Source: Pyrodictium abyssi
Lineage (GTDB): Archaea; Thermoproteota; Thermoprotei_A; Sulfolobales; Pyrodictiaceae
NCBI RefSeq assembly: GCF_036323395.1
Contig: NZ_AP028907.1
Span: 2,070,001 to 2,102,000, forward strand
Length of the DNA: 32,000 nucleotides
Direction of reading: 5' to 3'
Part shown: positions 10,255 through 22,045 of the stretch, piece by piece
Layout of the letters: every line of letters starts with the position of its first letter
Numbering within the stretch: position 1 is the first letter of the stretch
Notes under the pieces: model-generated
What the model was told of the DNA's origin: nothing
Database searches by the model: none
Seen by the model: the letters and a program-made list of their open reading frames with translations, nothing else
Translations under genes and position numbers: made by a program

Positions 10255-11208
10255 TCACCCTCCTATGTAGGCTTCTATCACGCGTGGGTCGTTGGCCACC
10301 TTGTGCGGCGGCCCCTCGGCTATGACGCGGCCAGAGTCCATGACAACCACGTTGTCGCAGAGATCCATCACAACCTCTAGGTCGTGCTCCACGAGCACGA
10401 AGGAGATGCCTCGGGTCTCGTTGACCTCCACTATGGCGCGCGCTAGGTCCTCCTTCTCCTCCCTGCTGAGGCCCGCCATAGGCTCGTCCATCAGCACTAC
10501 CTTCGGGTCCTGGGCGAGCGCTCTCGCCAGGTCTACGCGCTTCTGCACACCGGGAGGCAGGCCCTCGACAATCTGGTCCCGGTACTCGTGGAGCTCGAGG
10601 AGGTCGATAGCCCTCTCAGCCTTCTCCCTCGCCCACTCCTCCCAGCGCTGGGCCCGGCGGGTCCAGAACGCGGCGTCTACTATGCTGTAGCGCCTCCACG
10701 GCTCGAGGCCCGTCATGATGTTCTCGGCTACCGTCATGTGCTTGAATAGCTCGCTGTGCTGGAAGGTCCTGGCTAGCCCTAGCTTGGCCCTCGCGTGGGG
10801 CGGGAGCCGGGTGATATCCCTGCCCTCGAACACTACTCTACCGCTCTTCGGCTTGTAGAACCCGGAGACTACGTTCAGGAGGCTGGTCTTGCCCGCCCCG
10901 TTGGGGCCTATTACGGCGAGAATCTCGCCGGGGCGTAGCCTAAAGCCCGCGTTGTCTACGGCTACTATGCCGCCGAACTCTACCCTTATGCCCTCTACTT
11001 CGAGGATGTATTCCAGCTTCCCGTGGGGCTTCTCTCTGTAGGTGCTGCTTTCCTCCCAGAGCGCTCTGTAATCGAACCTGCTCACCTCTATGCGGGGCGC
11101 GTTAGCTGCGAAGAACAAAACGCACCATCTCGCACACCTCCTGGAGTGGTCTTCAGTGTTCCCGGTAGCCCACCACTGTTCGCTACTCTTATTTAAACAC
11201 TCGCCCAA
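10255..11208 (-). CDS. livG: LIV-type ABC transporter ATP-binding protein (LivG-like); start uncertain
   Basis: Walker A GPNGAGKTS, signature-like LPPGVQKRVDLARAL, Walker B VVLMDEP and the C-terminal DPRVIEAYIGG motif typical of LivG. There is no in-frame ATG upstream of the ABC domain. TTG 11208 lies in the AT-rich promoter region, so a later start (for example GTG 11085) is more likely. Confidence 0.88.
   Translation of the reverse strand: MGECLNKSSEQWWATGNTEDHSRRCARWCVLFFAANAPRIEVSRFDYRALWEESSTYREKPHGKLEYILEVEGIRVEFGGIVAVDNAGFRLRPGEILAVIGPNGAGKTSLLNVVSGFYKPKSGRVVFEGRDITRLPPHARAKLGLARTFQHSELFKHMTVAENIMTGLEPWRRYSIVDAAFWTRRAQRWEEWAREKAERAIDLLELHEYRDQIVEGLPPGVQKRVDLARALAQDPKVVLMDEPMAGLSREEKEDLARAIVEVNETRGISFVLVEHDLEVVMDLCDNVVVMDSGRVIAEGPPHKVANDPRVIEAYIGG
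11102..11128 (-). other. SD-led 8-codon mini-ORF (MVRFVLRS) in the liv operon leader
   Basis: GGAGGTG (11135-11141), a 6-nt spacer and ATG 11128, with stop TAA at 11102-11104. It is out of frame with livG and ends 17 nt upstream of the candidate livG GTG 11085. Confidence 0.35.
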
Positions 11209-16217: not shown

Positions 16218-17345
16218 CTACTGGATGAACTTCGCCACGGCCCGGGCATAATCCATTGTAGAGAGGCCTCCGCCCAGGTCCGGGGTCGTGAAGCCAGCTG
16301 CGAGCGCCTGCTCCACGGCCAGCTCCATCCTCGAGGCTGCCTCGCGGTAGCCCAGGTACTCGAGCATCATAGCCGCGGAGAGGATCATTGCAGTCGGGTT
16401 GGCCACCCCCTTCCCAGCGATATCCCATGCAGCGCCGTGCACCGGCTCGAAGAGCGCCTTCCCATCGCCTATGTTCGCCGAAGGGGCTAGCCCGAGGCCC
16501 CCAGCAACCTGGGCCGCTAGGTCGCTGAGAATATCACCGTACTGGTTCATGGTGAGCACTACGTCGAAGCGCGAGGGGTTGCGGACCATCTCCATCGCGG
16601 CAGCGTCGACATACATCTCGTCAACGGCTACACCCTCCTCCTCTAGGACACGGCGCGCCACGTCCCGGAACAAGCCGTCGGCGACCCGCAGCACGTTAGC
16701 CTTATGGACTATGGTCACGCGGCCTGAGCGGGAGGAGGCGTAGCGTGCAGCTACGCGTGCCACCCGCCGGGTACCCTCCTCCGTCACCACCTTCACGGCG
16801 AACGCGGCGCCGGGCACACTGAACTCTATACCCGCGTAGACGTCCTCCAGGTTCTCCCGCACTATCACCAGGTCTATCGGCGCGACGCTCACGACCCCGG
16901 GGAGGCTGCGGGCCGGACGAATGTTAGCGTAGACGCCTAGCTCCCTCCTCAGCACCACAACAACGTCCCGCGCGGTCTCGCCGACCGGGCCCTTGAGCAC
17001 AACGTCAGCCCAGTTCTTAGCTAGGCGCAGCGTCTCGCTTGGCAAGGGCTCGCCGTACTTGCGGGCAGCAGTATCCCCTGCCTCGGCGTAACGTATCTCA
17101 AGGTCTATCCCGTACATGTCTAGAGTCTTCTCGAGCACGTACATAGCGGCATCTGTTACCTCGGGGCCTATACCGTCACCTGGTATGACTAGCACCCGCG
17201 GAACCGCCAAGGGATCCCACACCACCGCTACACAGCTATTCCGTGGACTCCGGTCGTGCCCCAAGCCCCTGATGCGGAGCCAGGGGCCATGGCATAGGCA
17301 TGCGAGGCGGATGCCCCTAGCTACAGCCTTAGGTGGTACAGCCAT
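16218..17345 (-). CDS. leuB: 3-isopropylmalate dehydrogenase (or homoisocitrate dehydrogenase); N-terminus probably shorter
   Basis: VLVIPGDGIGPEV, NQYGDILSDLAA and GLAPSANIG are typical of the beta-decarboxylating dehydrogenase family. Homology begins about 50 codons after the track ATG 17345, which has no SD. Candidate starts are GTG 17225/17222, TTG 17210 and GTG 17195. Confidence 0.88.
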   Translation of the reverse strand: MAVPPKAVARGIRLACLCHGPWLRIRGLGHDRSPRNSCVAVVWDPLAVPRVLVIPGDGIGPEVTDAAMYVLEKTLDMYGIDLEIRYAEAGDTAARKYGEPLPSETLRLAKNWADVVLKGPVGETARDVVVVLRRELGVYANIRPARSLPGVVSVAPIDLVIVRENLEDVYAGIEFSVPGAAFAVKVVTEEGTRRVARVAARYASSRSGRVTIVHKANVLRVADGLFRDVARRVLEEEGVAVDEMYVDAAAMEMVRNPSRFDVVLTMNQYGDILSDLAAQVAGGLGLAPSANIGDGKALFEPVHGAAWDIAGKGVANPTAMILSAAMMLEYLGYREAASRMELAVEQALAAGFTTPDLGGGLSTMDYARAVAKFIQ

Positions 17346-17434: not shown

Positions 17435-18580
17435 CTAGACTGGCCTTGGATAAGGCGTCTCAGCACGTCGCTCCATGTACTCGTTTATCCAGCGGACTAT
17501 TATGTCCTCGCTGACCTTCTTCATCCTCGGCGCGTTCTCCTTCAGCCTGTCCAGGATGTACTTCACGAGCGCTGGCTCCGGGGTCACGCCGATGCTCTGG
17601 AGAGCCCATTCGACCGCGGCGCGGCCGCTGTGGCGCCCCAGGACTATCCGCCGACGGTTGCCTACAGCCTCGGGCGGCAACGGCTCGTACGTTGCAGGGT
17701 TCTTCAGCACACCGTGCACGTGTATACCAGCCTCGTGGGCGAACGCGTTACGCCCCACAATCGCCTTGTTAGGAGGCGTCTCTACACCGAACTTGCTCGC
17801 CACTAGCCGCGACACGGGCGTTAGCAGCTCCATTCGGATGCCAGTGCTGCGGTCCATGAGGTAGTGTAACGCAGCCACGACCTCCTCTAGCGCGGCGTTG
17901 CCAGCTCTCTCGCCGAACCCGTTCACAGTGACCTGGACGCCGTCTGCCCCCGCCCTAACGCCGGCCAACGTATTAGCAGTAGCCATGCCGAAGTCGTCAT
18001 GGCAGTGTACGTCTATCCAGACCCAGGACGGGAGACTCCTCCTTATGAGGCCCACAAGCCACTCCATATACCAGGGGGTCGCGGTGCCCACGGTGTCCGG
18101 TATGTTTATGTAGCTAGCACCAGCCTCGACAACGCTCCGGTATATCCTAACGAGGAACCCAGGGTCGCTCCTCGTCGCGTCCTCGGCCGAGAATAGGACG
18201 GTAGCGCCGTAGCTCCGCGCCCGCTCGACCGCCTCGACAGCCCGTTCCACCACCTGGTCCCGTGTCATCCTCAGCTTGTACTTCATGTGCACGTCGCTGG
18301 TGGCTATGAACACGTGGATTATGTGTGCTTCAGCCGCTGCCGCCTCGTCCACGTCGCGTGGATGGGCCCTGGCAAGGGCGGCGATCCTGGCTCTAGAGGC
18401 CTCCCTGACAGCTGCTCTCACGGCTCTACGGTCTATCTCGGAGGAGGCGGGGAACCCAGCCTCTATCACGTCGACGCCAAGCTCGTCGAGGGCTCGTAGA
18501 ATCTCTATCTTGTCGTAGAAGTCTAGCTCTATTCCAGGCATCTGGTCTCCGTCACGGAGGGTTGTATCGAAGACCCTTAT
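17435..18580 (-). CDS. leuA: 2-isopropylmalate synthase-family enzyme (IPMS/homocitrate/citramalate synthase), short form; non-canonical start
   Basis: HCHDDFGMATANTLAG, the FIATSDVH region and EAGIHVHG identify the DRE-TIM family. The track start ATG 18541 would remove the in-frame upstream IRVFDTTLRDGDQ. The frame is open back to TGA 18611-18613 with no ATG/GTG/TTG, so I extend it to the ATA codon at 18580-18578 (see findings). Confidence 0.8.
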   Translation of the reverse strand: MRVFDTTLRDGDQMPGIELDFYDKIEILRALDELGVDVIEAGFPASSEIDRRAVRAAVREASRARIAALARAHPRDVDEAAAAEAHIIHVFIATSDVHMKYKLRMTRDQVVERAVEAVERARSYGATVLFSAEDATRSDPGFLVRIYRSVVEAGASYINIPDTVGTATPWYMEWLVGLIRRSLPSWVWIDVHCHDDFGMATANTLAGVRAGADGVQVTVNGFGERAGNAALEEVVAALHYLMDRSTGIRMELLTPVSRLVASKFGVETPPNKAIVGRNAFAHEAGIHVHGVLKNPATYEPLPPEAVGNRRRIVLGRHSGRAAVEWALQSIGVTPEPALVKYILDRLKENAPRMKKVSEDIIVRWINEYMERRAETPYPRPV

Positions 18581-18604
18581 GCGAGTTCCATTTTCGACTG
18601 CACC
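18581..18604 (-). promoter_or_regulatory. 24-nt leader cassette, leuA copy (GGTGCAGTCGAAAATGGAACTCGC on the minus strand)
   Basis: It is the exact reverse complement of plus-strand 18857-18880. It is extended 5' to a full GGAGGTG (18601-18607) and contains ATG 18591-18589, which opens MELA-stop (18591..18577). Confidence 0.6.
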
Positions 18605-18670
18605 TCCGTCTCATGCCCGATGGAGTTCCGGCTTCTTGGCTGGGCCGGGGACACCGGGTGCCCACAACCG

Positions 18671-18724
18671 TCTATTTAAGCGTTGCCTTCCGCATTTTGG
18701 AGTTATACGGAAAACGTTTTAATA
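18671..18724. promoter_or_regulatory. candidate divergent TATA boxes for leuA (CTTAAATAGA on minus, 18671-18680) and ilvB (TTTTAATA, 18717-18724)
   Basis: These are the only AT-rich boxes in the 310-nt leuA-ilvB spacer. The assignment is positional only. Confidence 0.35.
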
Positions 18725-18800
18725 GGGGAAGCCGGTGGGCAGGCCTACCCGACGCCCTTCTAGGCCGCTAGGCGGCTCCGCCAGACCGGAGGTGGTCTCG

Positions 18801-18821
18801 ATGTCAAACGTCCCCATGTAG
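18801..18821 (+). other. SD-led mini-ORF 1 in the ilvB leader (MSNVPM)
   Basis: GGAGGTG at 18788-18794, a 6-nt spacer, ATG 18801 and stop TAG at 18819-18821. Confidence 0.4.
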
Positions 18822-18836
18822 CTGGAGGTGGTCCAG

Positions 18837-18854
18837 ATGTCAAACATTATGTGA
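18837..18854 (+). other. SD-led mini-ORF 2 in the ilvB leader (MSNIM)
   Basis: GGAGGTG at 18824-18830, a 6-nt spacer and ATG 18837. The stop TGA 18852-18854 overlaps the in-frame GTG 18851 of the ilvB ORF. Confidence 0.4.
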
Positions 18855-20629
18855 GGGGTGCAGTCGAAAATGGAACTCGCGTGGTAGACCACATAGCCCG
18901 TGTTCTAAAAGACCTGGGCGCCACCCAGGTCTTCGGGGTAACCGGCGGCAGCATAATGGGGCTCTTCGACGCGCTAGCGCTCGAGGACTTCGAGATCTAC
19001 ATGTTCCGCCATGAGCAGGGAGCGGCGCACGCAGCCGACGCCTACGGCAGGATAGCCCGCAGGCCGGGAATAGCACTAGCAACAAGCGGCCCAGGCGCCA
19101 CGAACCTTGTAACCGGCATAGCTAACGCCTACTTCGACTCCGCGCCCATGCTGGCTATCACCGGGCAGGTACCGACAAGCGTCTTCGGCCGCGACGCCTT
19201 CCAGGAGACAGACATCGTGGGCGTAACGGCGCCGATAACCAAGTTCGCCTACCAGGTGAAGAGGCCAGAAGAAGCCGGCCCGGCCATAAGAACGGCGTAC
19301 AGGCTCGCGGTCGAGGGGAGGCCTGGCCCCACTCTCATCGACCTACCCAGAGACGTGCAGCTAGTACGCTACGAGCCAGTGGACGAGCCCGAGTATCTCC
19401 CAATAGACTTCGCCAAGTATCAGCCGCCGAAGCCCGACCCGGAGGCTGTTGCTAGCGCTGCACGCCTACTACTCGCGGCGGCAAGGCCCGTAATCCTGGT
19501 CGGTGCTGGTGTATACTGGTCCGGGGCTACAGCCGAGGTCATAGAGCTCGCTGAGCGGCTACAGGCGCCCATAGTGACAACACTCCCCGGCAAGAATGCT
19601 GTCCCTGCAGACCACCCCCTAGTGCTAGGCCCAGCTGGGATGCACGGCCGTGCAGAAGCGGACGCTGCTCTCGCTAACGCCGACGTAGTGCTCGCTGTAG
19701 GCACTAGGTTCTCCGACCGTACCGTTGGCAGGTTTGGGCCAGAGCTACGCGAGAAGAAGATAATCCACATAGACATCGACCCCAGTGAGCACGGCAAGAA
19801 CGTGCCACCAGCTGTGAGCATTGTGGCTGATGCGCGGGAGGCGCTCCAGGCAATACTCCGCGAGATGAAGGTGGTGCCTAAGCGCGACGGGAGGTTCATC
19901 GAGTGGCTGCTCTGGATACGCCGCCGCTACGAGGACGCTATGGAGAAGCTAGCGGCCCGGATGAGGAAGTTCGCGCCCTGGAAGGTGTTGAAGACGCTCA
20001 GGCAGGCAGTGCCGCGCAATACGATAACCGTCACTGGTGTGGGCAGCCACCAGATGTGGTCAGAGATACACTGGGACGTATACGTGCCCGGCACCTGGGT
20101 GACGAGCGCAGGCCTAGGCACGATGGGGTTCTGTGTCCCGGCAGCGCTCGGCGCCAAGATAGCTGCGAGGGACCGCCCAGTACTCTGCATCGATGGCGAC
20201 GGGAGCTTCCAGATGACTATGAATAACCTGGCCCTCGTGAGGGACTACGACCTACCCATAATAGTGACAGTATTCGACAACCGTGCGCTCATGCTGGTAA
20301 AGCAGTGGCAGATATTCCTCTACGACCGGAGGATAGTAGCTACCGAGTACAGCAAGTGGCCCGACTTCACGAAGATAGCTGAGGCCTACGGGATAGAGGC
20401 GATACGCCCAGCAAGCCTAGAGGAGATCAACGCAGCAGTACGCCGCGCTATCCGGAACAATGAGCCCCTCATAGTAGTGGTGGACATAGACAACAACGAG
20501 GACATAGTGCTGCCATGGGTGAAGCCCGGCGACTGGCTGACAGACGCGATACTGCCGCCCGGGATGGAGGATGTCAGCCTCGTTTTCCGCGAGGAGAAGC
20601 TAACAGCTGCCCCCGCAGCTGGGAGGTGA
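18851..20629 (+). CDS. ilvB: acetolactate synthase (acetohydroxyacid synthase) large subunit
   Basis: ThDP-enzyme motifs: VFGVTGGS, HEQGAAHAADAYGR and IDGDGSFQMTMNNLA. Family N-termini align from about GTG 18881 (VDHIARVLKDLG...). Whether GTG 18851 or GTG 18881 is used is unresolved. Confidence 0.9.
   Translation: MRGAVENGTRVVDHIARVLKDLGATQVFGVTGGSIMGLFDALALEDFEIYMFRHEQGAAHAADAYGRIARRPGIALATSGPGATNLVTGIANAYFDSAPMLAITGQVPTSVFGRDAFQETDIVGVTAPITKFAYQVKRPEEAGPAIRTAYRLAVEGRPGPTLIDLPRDVQLVRYEPVDEPEYLPIDFAKYQPPKPDPEAVASAARLLLAAARPVILVGAGVYWSGATAEVIELAERLQAPIVTTLPGKNAVPADHPLVLGPAGMHGRAEADAALANADVVLAVGTRFSDRTVGRFGPELREKKIIHIDIDPSEHGKNVPPAVSIVADAREALQAILREMKVVPKRDGRFIEWLLWIRRRYEDAMEKLAARMRKFAPWKVLKTLRQAVPRNTITVTGVGSHQMWSEIHWDVYVPGTWVTSAGLGTMGFCVPAALGAKIAARDRPVLCIDGDGSFQMTMNNLALVRDYDLPIIVTVFDNRALMLVKQWQIFLYDRRIVATEYSKWPDFTKIAEAYGIEAIRPASLEEINAAVRRAIRNNEPLIVVVDIDNNEDIVLPWVKPGDWLTDAILPPGMEDVSLVFREEKLTAAPAAGR
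18857..18880 (+). promoter_or_regulatory. 24-nt leader cassette, ilvB copy (GGTGCAGTCGAAAATGGAACTCGC)
   Basis: It is the perfect inverted-repeat partner of 18581-18604. It contains ATG 18870, which opens MELAW-stop (18870..18887), and it ends directly before GTG 18881. Confidence 0.6.
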
Positions 20630-20930: not shown

Positions 20931-21061
20931 CACTACTTTCTTGAGTGCAAGGCCTCTCTCCCCACAAACCTACAGCTATATGGATACTTATACCATATGT
21001 CTATGGTATTGTGAGTCGAGGTGGGAAGCCTCGGATACGAGGAGTCGGGGGTGGAGACACC

Positions 21062-22045
21062 GTGGCGAGGATATACACAGACCAGGATGCTAGCCTAGAT
21101 CCGCTCCGTGACAAGACCATAGCGGTAATAGGCTACGGTAGCCAGGGCCGTGCCCAGGCCCTCAACCTCCGCGATAGCGGGCTAGACGTCATAATAGGGC
21201 TTAGGCCGGGGAAGAGCTGGGAGCTCGCCGAGAAAGAGGGGTTCAAGGTATACCGGGTGGACGAGGCGGTCAAACGGGCGGACGTAGTAATGATGCTCAT
21301 ACCCGACATGGTCCAGCCCGAGGTCTGGAAGAACCAGGTGGAGCCACACCTACGCGAGGGCATGACGGTGGACTTCGCCCACGGCTTCACGGTGCACTAC
21401 GGCCTAATCAAGCCGCCCGAGTACGTGGACGTCGTCATGGTGGCGCCTAAGAGCCCTGGCGCTAAGGTCCGTGAGGAGTTTGTCGCGGGCCGCGGCGTAC
21501 CAGCCCTCGTAGCAGTATACCAGGACTATACCAGCCGTGCCCTGGAGACCGCTCTCGCCATAGCTAAGGGCATTGGGGCGACGCGGGCGGGCGTCATAGA
21601 GACCACTTTCAAGGAGGAGACAGAGACGGACCTCATAGGCGAACAGACGGTGCTCGTCGGCGGGCTCATGGAGCTGATAAAGAAGGGCTTCGAGACACTC
21701 GTGGAGCTGGGCTACCAGCCCGAGGTAGCGTACTTCGAGGTACTCAACGAGGCCAAGCTGATAATGGACCTCATATGGAGGTACGGTATCACGGGCATGC
21801 TGGAAAGGGTCTCCGTCACGGCTCGCTACGGCGGCCTGACAGTAGGGCCGAAGATCATAGACGACAGGGTCAAGGAGAACATGAAGAAGGCTGCTGAGCG
21901 GGTACGCAGCGGCGAGTTCGCCAAGGAGTGGGTGGAGGAGTACAGGAAGGGGATGCCGAGGCTTCAGAAGCTCCTCGAGGAGACGCGGAGCCACGAGATA
22001 GAGCGCGTGGGCAAGGAGATGCGCCGCCTCCTCTTCGGTGGCTAG
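21062..22045 (+). CDS. ilvC: ketol-acid reductoisomerase (class I)
   Basis: [36 protein letters not shown] matches the class I KARI N-terminus and Rossmann motif. GTG 21062 is preceded by GGGGGTGGAG. The track ATG 20945 adds 39 non-homologous codons that cover the AT-rich promoter region 20973-21012. Confidence 0.92.

Follow-up and report, generated by a model that had tools for sequence, protein, structure and literature searches.

A putative starvation-sensing −1 frameshift leader on the divergent leuA and ilvB genes of Pyrodictium abyssi

Ribosomes probably make the enzymes of the divergent genes leuA and ilvB of Pyrodictium abyssi by shifting frame by −1 at a starved codon, with the aid of a Shine–Dalgarno (SD) sequence 12 nt upstream. 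The anatomy of the two leaders, their conservation, their frame relations and the missing start codons of the enzymes are read directly from the DNA; that the ribosome slips, and does so in response to starvation, is our inference. If true, heat-loving archaea induce branched-chain amino acid (BCAA) enzymes by a one-base back-slip of the ribosome on amino acid shortage, a control mechanism without previous description. An initial sequence-only reading of this DNA knew of no archaeal equivalent, and the literature likewise yielded none, nor any published description of such leaders.

The stretch analyzed (the window) is 32,000 nt long, and the 24-mer GGTGCAGTCGAAAATGGAACTCGC occurs in it exactly twice, at 18581-18604 on the minus strand and 18857-18880 on the plus strand. 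The copies form an inverted repeat with 100% complementary arms separated by 252 nt, confirming the exact reverse complements described in the sequence-only reading; 100 shuffles gave no match to the 24-mer, even with 3 mismatches permitted. Each copy carries a strong SD, 9 nt and then ATG GAA CTC GC. As had been described, the SD is GGAGGTG at 18607-18601 (−) and GAGGGGTG at 18853-18860 (+), and the ATG, which does not share the frame of the enzyme, opens the mini-ORFs MELA-stop (18591..18577, −) and MELAW-stop (18870..18887, +). The expectation that ribosomes should load on these mini-ORFs is backed by at least 8 ordinary genes in the window, whose initiation signal is GG[AG]GGTG with a start codon 6–10 nt further on. 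The cassette reads as a conserved site for ribosome loading joined to a very short ORF with one leucine codon. A genome scan placed it before leuA and ilvB and nowhere else. The leuA copy shows 0 substitutions relative to the related locus L001, and 7/43 positions of the neighboring 5′ UTR are changed. The cassette is kept in orthologous spacers while the flanks diverge, in agreement with the idea of a cis element common to two committed BCAA enzymes. The likeness proposed for the two 5′ flanks (ATGAGACGGA and ATGTGAGG) is not kept in a 96% relative.

The features on the leuA side are as follows.

18672..18680, minus strand: TATA-like box CTTAAATAG (minus-strand letters) of the leuA promoter, read from sequence
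18611..18613, minus strand: TGA that closes the leuA enzyme frame 13 codons ahead of F-D-T-T-L-R-D-G
18601..18607, minus strand: leader SD GGAGGTG, 9 nt to the ATG and 12 nt to the slip codon GAA
18581..18604, minus strand: leuA cassette copy, found by sequence search
18577..18591, minus strand: mini-ORF ATG GAA CTC GCA TAA (M-E-L-A-stop), read from sequence
18583..18589, minus strand: proposed shift site G-GAA, then Leu sensor CTC; the sequence is seen, the slip proposed
17435..18589, minus strand: leuA frame from the shift site to the stop; 2-isopropylmalate/homocitrate synthase family (Pfam)

An A/T-rich box is also present at the position of the leuA TATA box in L001 and L004–L008, and transcription would be expected to start at about 18650-18645, some 40 nt upstream of the SD. 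The leuA product matches the Pfam families HMGL-like (8e-88) and HCS_D2. The HMGL-like match begins at residue 11 of the frame read from 18610, which is ATA 18580-78, and the TAA of the mini-ORF overlaps this codon. On the other side, TPP_enzyme_N begins at residue 10 of the frame read from 18851, so that ilvB homology starts at GTG 18881. These boundaries agree exactly with the earlier claim that similarity to the enzymes begins at the codon 3′ of the cassette.

There is no ATG, GTG or TTG in the window between the in-frame TGA (18613-18611) and the catalytic DTTLRDG of leuA. The same in-frame TGA precedes leuA in L001, and leuA of the window, L001 and L043 all lack a canonical start between the in-frame stop and DTTLRDG; in L043, 92 codons are devoid of one. 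Distant leuA homologs have a canonical start 2–28 codons upstream in 79/79 cases, and the mini-ORF with a −1-frame enzyme was seen in 0/76 of them. MELA-TAA is found in 10/10 Pyrodictiaceae leuA leaders. The enzyme frame is broken just 5′ of the leuA shift site by TGA in the window, TAA in L106 and a 1-nt insertion in L008 and L106; no enzyme-frame stops or indels lie downstream of the shift sites in the leaders compared. On both sides, the enzyme frame is open across the cassette, reading GAVENGTR. On the leuA side the cassette is nevertheless not enzyme-coding, given that the insertion of L008 and L106 and the TAA of L106 fall inside it.

It is extremely improbable that the layout is an artefact, be it a frameshift from sequencing or assembly, a pseudogene or a normal in-frame N-terminal extension (GAVENGTR). 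The P. aerophilum LeuA entry P0061 (LEU1_PYRAE) does fuse the frames as MASGLVQ-IKIFD, as if an error had been repaired, and gene callers extend in frame in some MAGs. However, the frame layout recurs in more than 15 independent assemblies and in two genes, both genes are otherwise intact and fully covered by their Pfam domains, the in-frame reading meets the breaks given above, and the in-frame GTG 18851 of the window is replaced by GTA in L001.

Upstream of ilvB, two additional SD plus mini-ORF units, MSNVPM-stop and MSNIM-stop, had been overlooked in the sequence-only reading. The ilvB side therefore comprises three units, all read from the sequence.

18717..18725, plus strand: TATA-like box TTTTAATAG of the ilvB promoter
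18788..18821, plus strand: Val unit, SD 18788-94 (extended SD GGAGGTGGTC, 18788-97) and mini-ORF
18801-21, plus strand: Val mini-ORF ATG TCA AAC GTC CCC ATG TAG (MSNVPM-stop)
18806-09, plus strand: proposed shift site A-AAC of the Val unit; Val codon GTC at 18810-12
18824..18854, plus strand: Ile unit, SD 18824-30 (extended SD GGAGGTGGTCC, 18824-34) and mini-ORF
18837-54, plus strand: Ile mini-ORF ATG TCA AAC ATT ATG TGA (MSNIM-stop)
18842-45, plus strand: proposed shift site A-AAC of the Ile unit; Ile codon ATT at 18846-48
18853..18887, plus strand: Leu unit, SD GAGGGGTG 18853-60, with the ilvB cassette copy (18857-80, sequence search) inside it
18870-87, plus strand: Leu mini-ORF ATG GAA CTC GCG TGG TAG (MELAW-stop)
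18872-75, plus strand: proposed shift site G-GAA of the Leu unit; Leu codon CTC at 18876-78
18872..20629, plus strand: ilvB (acetohydroxyacid synthase large subunit) frame from the Leu shift site (Pfam)

The ilvB TATA-like box is kept in L001 and L004, and transcription would be expected to start at about 18748-18752. The Val unit has 0 substitutions relative to L001 and is also present in P. occultum (L004). The Ile unit occurs in every Pyrodictiaceae ilvB leader examined; relative to L001 it shows 3 changes, with the A-AAC site and the stop retained. The product carries TPP_enzyme_N, _M and _C, and its N-terminus lacks a canonical start in L006, L102, L007, L008 and L191. The ilvB enzyme frame runs across the leader with 0 stops and is open back across the Ile and Val units, which is not discriminating, as most of the third frame is likewise open over these 47–95 nt. 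In the ilvB leader of L008, TCG stands where the mini-ORF start codon is expected.

About 10 Pyrodictiaceae lineages share the design, and it is found again, with different sequences, in Desulfurococcaceae, Pyrobaculum and Thermoproteus. The enzyme lies in the −1 frame of the mini-ORF in 34/34 listed cases (Pyrodictiaceae, Desulfurococcaceae, Pyrolobus, Pyrobaculum and Thermoproteus), and the mini-ORF-to-mini-ORF spacings of 33, 36, 39 and 42 nt are all multiples of 3. The Pyrobaculum ilvB leader MSGVSGLTRGIQNEL-stop (M-S-G-V-S-G-L-T-R-G-I) contains three G-GGG sites, G-GGG|GTA, G-GGG|CTT and G-GGG|ATT. In the Thermoproteales a TATA box lies 19–24 nt before the mini-ORF ATG, so a leaderless mRNA probably begins at this ATG.

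The Leu, Ile and Val sensor codons nearly all stand immediately 3′ of a slip-prone context (G-GAA, A-AAC or G-GGG), the combinations seen being G-GAA|CTC, G-GAA|GTC, G-GAA|ATT, A-AAC|ATT/ATC, A-AAC|GTC and G-GGG|CTC. By a slip-context rule drawn up after inspection of the data, 6% of BCAA codons in ordinary window genes follow a strict slip context, and 0 follow G-GAA. Some BCAA codons in Thermoproteales mini-ORFs have no slip context before them. Across both orders, only Leu codons are slip-preceded in leuA leaders; in ilvB leaders the sensors are Ile and Leu, often joined by Val. GAA, which makes up 5% of Glu codons in this genome, is invariant. The Ile sensor is always ATT or ATC and never ATA, the genomic shares of ATT and ATA being 4% and 77% of Ile codons. 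Codon 2 of the Ile unit is TCA, CCA or TTA (S/P/L), with the third-base A constant. Such nucleotide-level conservation would fit a slip site rather than a peptide. The distance from the end of the SD core to the slip codon is 12 nt in both cassette types, although their SD-to-start distances are 9 and 6 nt.

The nucleotide-level invariance of TGGAACTCGC and the near-invariant spacer CAGYCGAAA, which the frameshift model does not fully explain, could also point to an RNA structure, a riboswitch-like element or the target of a trans-acting RNA or protein, the ATG being incidental. This reading is highly improbable. Other lineages keep a like layout with unrelated sequence, the single-sequence folding z-score is −0.54, alifold gives a covariation term of −0.19 kcal/mol and shows no compensatory pair within the cassette, and an Rfam search gave 0 matches. 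The common RNA structure suggested in the sequence-only reading is thus not borne out.

In the proposed mechanism, the strong SD would place the ribosome on an ORF of 4–6 codons, in which codon 3 or 4 would be the sensor, Leu (CTC), Ile (ATT/ATC) or Val (GTC). The codon before the sensor, together with its 5′ base, could re-pair one base back (G-GAA, A-AAC or, in the Thermoproteales, G-GGG). When charged tRNA is plentiful, the ribosome would pass the sensor and terminate 1–2 codons later, giving no enzyme. When it is scarce, the A site would be empty and the P-site tRNA could slip by −1, drawn back by the SD:anti-SD pairing that persists 12 nt upstream; translation would then proceed in the enzyme frame, itself without a usable start codon. 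For leuA, tRNA-Glu would re-pair on GGA (18589-87) and reading would continue with ACT CGC ATA AGG GTC TTC GAT, which predicts the N-terminus M-E-T-R-I-R-V-F-D-T-T-L-R-D-G. Only Leu would be sensed at leuA; ilvB, serving all three amino acids, would have its Val, Ile and Leu sensors in series and in one frame. Re-pairing from G-GAA to GGA requires G.U at the middle position, so G-GAA should be weaker than G-GGG or A-AAC. It also speaks against the model that every sensor consists of just one codon, that dipeptidyl-tRNA drop-off is possible instead of a shift, and that hungry-codon shifts in E. coli are usually inefficient. Slippage of a single P-site tRNA while the A site is empty is established (PMC8211752). 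An SD at 9–14 nt stimulates −1 shifts, and a single SD can both initiate and stimulate (PMC5009743); SD-stimulated frameshifting is documented in bacteria, not archaea.

Bacterial leu, ilvBN and ilvGMEDA attenuation likewise employs a short leader ORF that reports charged tRNA of the pathway end products, with Leu-only leaders on leucine genes and multivalent Val/Leu/Ile leaders on shared ilv genes. The archaeal leaders differ in having one sensor codon per unit instead of a run, no terminator/antiterminator hairpins and an overlap with the enzyme N-terminus in another frame, and their proposed output is a frame change, not transcription termination. In prfB (RF2, +1) and antizyme (+1), too, a short first ORF has an early stop, and, as proposed here, a slow A-site codon reporting the regulated quantity decides the shift into the protein frame, which in prfB is stimulated by an upstream SD. 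Here the shift would be −1 with the SD 12 nt upstream (prfB: +1, 3 nt), at codon 2–3 directly after initiation, and would respond to aminoacyl-tRNA instead of release factor (prfB) or polyamines (antizyme). E. coli dnaX and IS elements (IS911) have an SD 9–14 nt upstream of the shift site, as here, and IS911 uses a single SD for initiation and frameshifting, as proposed here; they differ in their tandem X-XXY-YYZ site, 3′ stem-loop and fixed ratio. Hungry-codon leftward frameshifting (Gallant and Lindsley) is a laboratory phenomenon, for the productive natural use of which ‘no examples are known’ (2016 review). The one reported archaeal −1 programmed frameshift, Saccharolobus solfataricus fucA1, differs in that its A-AAA-AAT site lies in the middle of the gene and is unconnected with amino acid supply. 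SCARF, a frameshifting just after initiation in mammalian cells that goes up on amino acid starvation (bioRxiv 10.1101/2023.02.15.528768), is genome-wide, acts via eIF5B loss and is not codon-specific.

A −1 hungry-codon shift would fit the missing starts, the slip contexts, the common frame, the 12-nt distance and the match between sensor and pathway. The main rival, the termination-reinitiation put forward in the sequence-only reading, which we consider unlikely, has the mini-ORF read and the enzyme restarted at its first codon, which the stop overlaps; the cassette would couple the enzyme to mini-ORF translation, possibly with a relay via the three ilvB mini-ORFs. The last mini-ORF stop is always at the enzyme N-terminus and, as in ATGA-type coupling, overlaps the first enzyme codon. 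The P. occultum ilvB junction is a textbook ATGA and GTG 18881 of the window lies 2 nt before TAG 18885-87, both of which suit reinitiation. In leuA of L004, L005, L007, L008 and L106, a GTG stands two codons past the mini-ORF stop, and in several lineages a canonical GTG or ATG occurs at the junction or close to it. In homologs such as P0015 (MRVFDTTL), Met1 is the residue aligned with the stop-overlapping codon, and the P. aerophilum start is annotated as ATA in RefSeq (P0066). However, reinitiation requires a start at ATA (window), GTA (L043, L006, L102, L007 ilvB) or CTA (L006 ilvB), with no canonical alternative, and the upstream ORF, unlike in ATGA coupling, has only 4–15 codons with conserved internal codons. 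Nor does it account for the BCAA codons and their pathway match, the slip contexts, the frame shared by the upstream mini-ORFs, the 12-nt SD-to-slip distance and the rare GAA. Regulation would be absent or of the wrong sign; if stalling matters, starvation would lower enzyme synthesis.

A leader-peptide sensor without frameshift is more doubtful still. Stalling at the BCAA codon would alter mRNA stability, access to a downstream start or transcription coupling, and the enzyme would begin at a non-canonical start. The BCAA codons match the pathway, and the logic is analogous to that of bacterial leu and ilv leader peptides, but a search for conserved alternative RNA structures or a terminator-like element found none, the enzyme's first codon would lie under a ribosome stalled at codon 3, and the slip contexts, common frame and missing starts are unexplained.

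The perfect inverted repeat around a 252-bp spacer with promoters might suggest a DNA-level element, either operators bound by one shared transcription factor or the arms of a promoter-bearing segment that inverts or moves; this is very improbable. The copies lie about 60–130 nt downstream of the expected transcription starts, and the cassette is confined to leuA and ilvB. The Thermoproteales repeat the design on unlinked genes with other sequences. The operator suggested earlier, or any function of the inverted repeat, finds no support in arm orientation or pairing, neither of which is conserved: L006/L102 show 5 differences between the arms, in L008 only the leuA copy is present, and in L106 one side bears two copies in tandem. 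A target-site duplication is absent, and orientation is identical in all relatives. The sequences do not support an RNA structure, operator, mobile element or sequencing error. A derived T at cassette position 8, common to both copies in the window and L001, could be taken in favor of the DNA-level element, and suggests gene conversion between the copies. The Val unit has two independent origins, MSNV from an Ile-type unit (Pyrodictium) and MEVA from a Leu-type unit (L106).

The window carries the branched-chain amino acid (BCAA) gene cluster of a Pyrodictiaceae member. The window's G+C content is approximately 63%, and the encoded LeuA shares 84% identity with its Pyrodictium occultum counterpart. 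From a 340-bp spacer, leuA-leuB-leuC leave leftwards and ilvB-ilvN-ilvC-ilvD-leuD rightwards. The 24-mer GGTGCAGTCGAAAATGGAACTCGC occurs exactly twice, at 18581-18604 (minus strand) and 18857-18880 (plus strand), as the sequence-only reading had described, and gave 0 matches in 100 shuffles with three mismatches allowed. That reading was also correct in placing a Shine-Dalgarno (SD) sequence in each copy 9 nt before an ATG that opens MELA-stop (18591..18577) or MELAW-stop (18870..18887), and in letting the enzyme homology of both genes begin at the codon directly after this mini-ORF cassette, which is also where the Pfam homology starts. The mini-ORF stop TAA overlaps ATA 18580-78 at leuA, and TAG 18885-87 adjoins GTG 18881 at ilvB. 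Upstream of ilvB, a 22-nt direct repeat, absent from the earlier reading, forms two further units of SD and mini-ORF. The units are named here after the Leu, Ile or Val codon of the mini-ORF (sensor codon), the cassette being the Leu unit.

18788-18821, plus strand: Val unit of the ilvB leader, GGAGGTGGTC-N3-ATG TCA AAC GTC CCC ATG TAG
18824-18854, plus strand: Ile unit of the ilvB leader, GGAGGTGGTCC-N2-ATG TCA AAC ATT ATG TGA

The motif GG[AG]GGTG, followed after 6-10 nt by a start codon, marks initiation in no fewer than eight ordinary genes of the window, among them ilvN, ilvC, leuD, leuC, livM and the binding protein. Because these genes use the same signal, ribosomes are expected to load on all four mini-ORFs, as had been predicted for the two cassette copies. 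There is hardly any doubt that the cassette is a leader element, conserved and translated, that is linked to the unusual way in which both enzymes start.

The enzymes themselves lack ordinary starts. The leuA frame is closed by TGA 18613-18611, and there is no ATG, GTG or TTG from there to the catalytic F-D-T-T-L-R-D-G. This motif gives the enzyme family its substrate-binding Arg and metal-binding Asp. The sole canonical leuA start, ATG 18541, falls after the motif, and a LeuA begun there would be inactive because both residues would be lost. Among the loci of relatives (L numbers), leuA of the 96% relative L001 and of L043 (92 open codons) shares with the window the absence of a canonical in-frame start, and the only one in L102 sits 39 codons upstream. 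The ilvB N-terminus or junction has no canonical start in L006, L102, L007, L008 and L191, the last from Pyrobaculum. Gene callers cut these genes back to internal Met codons (protein entries P0001-3, P0005 and many others). As a control set we used 79 distant leuA homologs (45-55% relatives) among the matches listed in the metagenome scan with LeuA. Of these, 79/79 have a canonical start, placed 2-28 codons ahead of the catalytic Asp, and the mini-ORF architecture was found in 0/76. An artefact as the source of the anomaly has next to no credibility; sequencing error is excluded because the layout recurs in more than 15 assemblies. Database entries patch the start-codon anomaly in several ways, without explanation there: the P. 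aerophilum LeuA (P0061, LEU1_PYRAE) reads MASGLVQ-IKIFD, with the mini-ORF joined to the enzyme across the stop (L109, ~2441-2470), and the RefSeq starts are ATA for P. aerophilum leuA, ATT for T. tenax leuA and CTG for P. aerophilum ilvB.

We compared the orthologous loci of ten Pyrodictiaceae lineages (L001-L008, L043, L102, L106). The cassette is kept at every orthologous leuA as SD-N9/10-NTG GAA CTC GCN TAA, whose stop overlaps the enzyme's first codon, so the conservation on which the earlier proposal depended is present. Before ilvB, the Leu cassette is kept in all lineages except L008 and L193. The A-AAC-ATT (Ile) unit occurs in all ilvB leaders, with the synonymous ATC in L106 and without its start codon in L008, where TCG stands at the expected position. 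The Val unit (A-AAC-GTC) is confined to Pyrodictium proper; in L106 the Leu-type cassette instead occurs a second time as GTG GAA GTC GCC TAA, with Val in place of Leu. A Val unit has arisen on two occasions, each time from another parent unit. In L006 and L102, which have CTG at the mini-ORF start, the frame is open from a GTG inside the SD that has its own upstream GGAGGGGG 6 nt away. Zero-frame stops in Pyrodictiaceae lie 1-2 codons past the sensor. L193 (~95-165), from a lower-GC Pyrodictium relative, has an upstream in-frame GTG CTG CTA CTC (M-L-L-L...), possibly a different way of placing Leu codons at the ilvB start.

The window and L001 differ at 26 positions over 359 nt. Neither cassette (50 nt) contains any of these, and the Val unit (34 nt) is likewise unchanged; the three in the Ile unit are all compatible changes, namely one in the spacer, TCA to CCA with A-AAC kept, and TGA to TAA with the stop kept. 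In the leuA 5' UTR just upstream of the cassette, 7/43 positions differ. The leuA-side cassette is not enzyme-coding, since it has a 1-nt insertion in L008 and L106, an enzyme-frame TAA inside it in L106, and a TGA just before it in the window and L001. Within the units, GAA, which accounts for 5% of this genome's Glu codons, is invariant. ATT or ATC (4% and 19% of Ile codons) serves as the Ile sensor and never ATA (77%), and the second codon of the Ile unit reads TCA, CCA or TTA with an invariant third-position A. Judged by these comparisons, conservation follows nucleotides and not peptides.

An element acting at the DNA level, whether operator, invertible segment or mobile element, was also considered, and a common operator was one of the readings first proposed. 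We regard a DNA element as highly improbable and contradicted by the relatives. The inverted-pair arrangement is not conserved, one arm being lost, tandemly duplicated or diverged in relatives (L008, L106, L006), and unlinked versions exist in Thermoproteales. No target-site duplication of an invertible segment or MITE was found at 18574-80 or 18881-87, and the orientation is the same in all loci. Cassette position 8 is T in both copies of the window (18597, minus strand; 18864, plus strand) and of L001, and C in all other lineages except the L006 and L106 leuA copies; the derived T shared by the two copies suggests gene conversion between them. A search with the pattern GGTGCAGYCGN{4,5}TGGAACTCG over 185,579 species genomes returned 99 stretches, of which 4 are archaeal, all at leuA or ilvB, and about 95 are single chance bacterial matches. 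The association of the 24-mer with these two genes thus held for the archaeal matches; the window's own genome and P. occultum are not among the 99 stretches, and this genome may hold further copies.

The units obey common rules. The enzyme lies in the -1 frame of the mini-ORF in 34/34 listed mini-ORFs, and the mini-ORFs within one ilvB leader share a single frame, lying 33, 36, 39 or 42 nt apart, in each case a multiple of three. A short zero-frame ORF with the product in the -1 frame is the layout of a programmed -1 frameshift. The sensor codon directly follows a candidate slip codon, which with its 5' neighbour would re-pair one base back, in the context A-AAC, G-GGG or G-GAA. The first two fit the X-XXN rule in the P site; G-GAA needs a middle G.U pair and re-pairs less well. 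The proposed shift sites contain no tandem X-XXY-YYZ heptamer. In ordinary genes of the window, strict X-XXN precedes 6% of BCAA codons and G-GAA none, a comparison made with a slip rule drawn up post hoc. The slip-preceded sensor is Leu only in the leuA leaders of both orders, and Ile and Leu, usually with Val, in the ilvB leaders. As in attenuators, the leaders thus contain codons for the pathway's own amino acids, one per unit and three per ORF in Pyrobaculum. The end of the SD core lies 12 nt ahead of the slip codon in 4/4 window units (13 nt in L008 and L106 leuA), and this distance is constant despite different spacers, 9 nt plus one pre-slip codon versus 6 nt plus two. It falls within the 9-14 nt upstream of a shift site at which an SD acts as stimulator; the Thermoproteales units have no SD.

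On these sequence features, we think it probable that the enzyme is made by a -1 frameshift at a starved codon in the leader mini-ORF. With ample amino acid, the ribosome would complete the mini-ORF and terminate. In a shortage, the A-site codon would await its scarce aminoacyl-tRNA, and the P-site tRNA alone would slip back by one base, bringing the ribosome into the enzyme frame; the enzyme would need no start codon of its own. The sign of this response would be right for a biosynthetic gene, with shortage switching the enzyme on. After the slip, the -1 A-site codon (xCT, xAT or xGT) would never be a BCAA codon, so the shifted ribosome would not be starved again. The ilvB leader would offer three independent entry points, a multivalent control giving N-terminal extensions of approximately 3, 14 and 26 residues. 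The spacer CAGYCGAAA is near-invariant in the ilvB copies, where ribosomes shifted upstream would translate it in the enzyme frame, and more variable at leuA, where they would not; the frameshift model explains this near-invariance in part only. Both mechanical elements have precedents. In a one-tRNA 'hungry' regime, the P-site tRNA can slip while the A-site codon waits (PMC8211752, PMC5009743), and an SD 9-14 nt upstream stimulates -1 shifts, where a single SD may serve as initiator and stimulator (PMC5009743). The openness of the enzyme frame across ilvB leaders did not discriminate and is not statistically informative on frameshifting, since the third frame, too, stays open for the most part. 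A shift at the mini-ORF stop itself (tRNA-Ala on GCN, or tRNA-Gln on CAA as LEU1_PYRAE implies) was rejected because no re-pairing is possible there.

Termination-reinitiation, in which the ribosome ends the mini-ORF and restarts at the enzyme's first codon, was a route suggested from the sequence alone, and we rate it as unlikely. The overlap or adjacency of stop and start fits it, as with GTG 18881 beside TAG 18885 and with the ATGA of P. occultum ilvB (L004), and where GTG or ATG is present, reinitiation may provide basal expression. However, the junction lacks a canonical start in leuA of the window, L001 and L043 and in ilvB of the five loci L006, L102, L007, L008 and L191, and initiation at ATA, GTA or CTA would be required in many lineages. 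Reinitiation also accounts for none of the shared frame, the slip contexts, the match of sensor to pathway, the nucleotide-level conservation and the SD distance. An in-frame N-terminal extension, GAVENGTR from GTG 18851, was rejected because this GTG is GTA in L001 and a TGA precedes the leuA copy.

A leader that stalls the ribosome without a change of frame seems very unlikely to us, as no conserved RNA switch was found and the restart site would be hidden beneath the stalled ribosome. The common RNA structure envisaged earlier for the two genes did not materialize: Rfam gave no match at the gathering threshold over the whole window, RNAalifold of 10 leuA leaders gave no covariation (covariation term -0.19), and RNAfold of the leuA leader gave z = -0.54. 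No conserved terminator or antiterminator hairpin and no T-run after the mini-ORFs were found, nor did RNAalifold and RNAfold reveal structured RNA on the 3' side of the shift site. An SD:CCUCC pairing in the minimum-energy fold of the window is not conserved in L005, and inspection by eye for T-box-like UGGN/NCCA pairing, k-turns and box C/D gave no matching motifs.

The design recurs outside the Pyrodictiaceae. The leuA of P. aerophilum (P0087), marked by the sequencing authors as 'with possible unusual start codon', has a TATA box, approximately 19 nt, and then ATG GCT TCG GGG CTC GTA CAA TAA (MASGLVQ-stop); the enzyme is in the -1 frame relative to this mini-ORF, closed upstream by TAA and without a canonical start. 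The T. tenax leuA leader is ATG GAG TCG GGG CTC GTA TTG TAA. The pseudo-N-termini 'YG[FIV]GAR' and 'NVGG[SN]FGAR', which recur in Thermoproteales annotations, are this Thermoproteales leader sequence read in the enzyme frame. In Pyrobaculum ilvB (L191), a TATA box and 20 nt precede ATG TCG GGG GTA TCG GGG CTT ACT CGG GGG ATT CAA AAC GAG TTG TAG (M-S-G-V-S-G-L-T-R-G-I-Q-N-E-L-stop), in which three G-GGG sites are followed by Val, Leu and Ile codons, respectively; ilvB is again at -1 with no canonical start. The ilvB leader of a Desulfurococcaceae member (L192) is ATG CCC TCG GAA CTC GGG GTG ACG GAC ATG GAA ATT CAG TAA, and that of Pyrolobus is ATG GAT TTG CGG GAA GTA GAG TGG TAG. Many other Desulfurococcales LeuA N-termini (P0013-P0042) show an abundance of Ile, Val and Leu shortly ahead of the core (MVLIATC..., MPIVAR..., MCIATW...), and P0045-P0048 and P0050 are called from an internal Met; these are hints of further leader variants. 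On balance we lean towards a general statement, that Thermoprotei control the committed enzymes of the Leu and Val/Ile/Leu pathways by amino-acid-specific programmed -1 frameshifting at starved codons of leader mini-ORFs, and that the ribosome gets to the enzymes only in a shortage of the cognate charged tRNA.

The logic would be that of the bacterial leu/ilv attenuators, the effector that of the autoregulatory frameshifting of prfB and antizyme, and the mechanics those of SD-stimulated -1 shifting in dnaX and IS911 combined with hungry-codon slippage. To our knowledge, neither attenuation nor T-boxes, bacterial means of matching amino acid synthesis to supply at the pathway level, are described for archaea, and SD-stimulated frameshifting is documented in bacteria. 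Our literature search found no report of archaeal leuA or ilvB leader ORFs or of frameshifting at these genes, in agreement with the earlier reading, to which no archaeal equivalent was known. A 2016 frameshifting review states of productive hungry-codon shifting that 'no examples are known', and fucA1 is the only -1 case listed in a 2021 review of archaeal recoding, where leuA and ilvB go unmentioned. If the model is true, hungry-codon frameshifting, for decades known as a translation error, would here be a selected regulatory device and would for the first time have a natural, productive use. Archaea would also have their first cis-regulatory device that senses amino acids, equivalent in function to bacterial attenuation and built on a different principle. 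A whole class of hyperthermophiles would read tRNA charging on the ribosome and convert it to a change of reading frame, and the enzyme genes would have given up their own start codons. This would explain the routine mis-annotation of leuA and ilvB (internal-Met truncation, ATA, ATT or CTG starts, cross-frame 'repair'). It would also give a rule for finding similar leaders on other amino acid pathways, which would combine a strong SD or an ATG that is leaderless, a slip-prone codon, an end-product codon, an early stop, and the enzyme at -1.

Several further features of the window were noted. At 11102-11141 (minus strand), the SD GGAGGTG and 6 nt precede ATG GTG CGT TTT GTT CTT CGC AGC TAA (MVRFVLRS-stop; two Val, one Leu, one Phe), a mini-ORF in the leader of a LivG-type BCAA ABC ATPase (ORF 10255..11208; Pfam ABC_tran and BCA_ABC_TP_C). 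The ATPase ORF is +1, not -1, relative to this mini-ORF, and an in-frame GTG follows shortly after. Just downstream of both TATA-like boxes of the leuA-ilvB spacer lies a G-rich motif, GTGGGA...CCGGTGGGCC (~18640-18665, minus strand; 18727-18750, plus strand), which recurs in all Pyrodictiaceae loci and Pyrolobus (also L005, L007, L008, L043 and L009) and may be a promoter-proximal operator or transcription start region. Within ilvB, approximately 30 nt past the N-terminus, 18909-18933 (plus strand) forms a perfect 10-bp hairpin, AAGACCTGGG / CCCAGGTCTT, with a 5-nt loop; it is kept in L001 with a different loop, and P. occultum lacks it. The mechanical ORFs for ilvC (20945-21062, plus strand) and leuB (16218-17345, minus strand) are probably too long: at ilvC, an SD at 21047 points to GTG 21062 (327 aa; orthologs 328-332 aa), and in the leuB ORF, Pfam Iso_dh begins at residue 51, with orthologs called at 308-347 aa.
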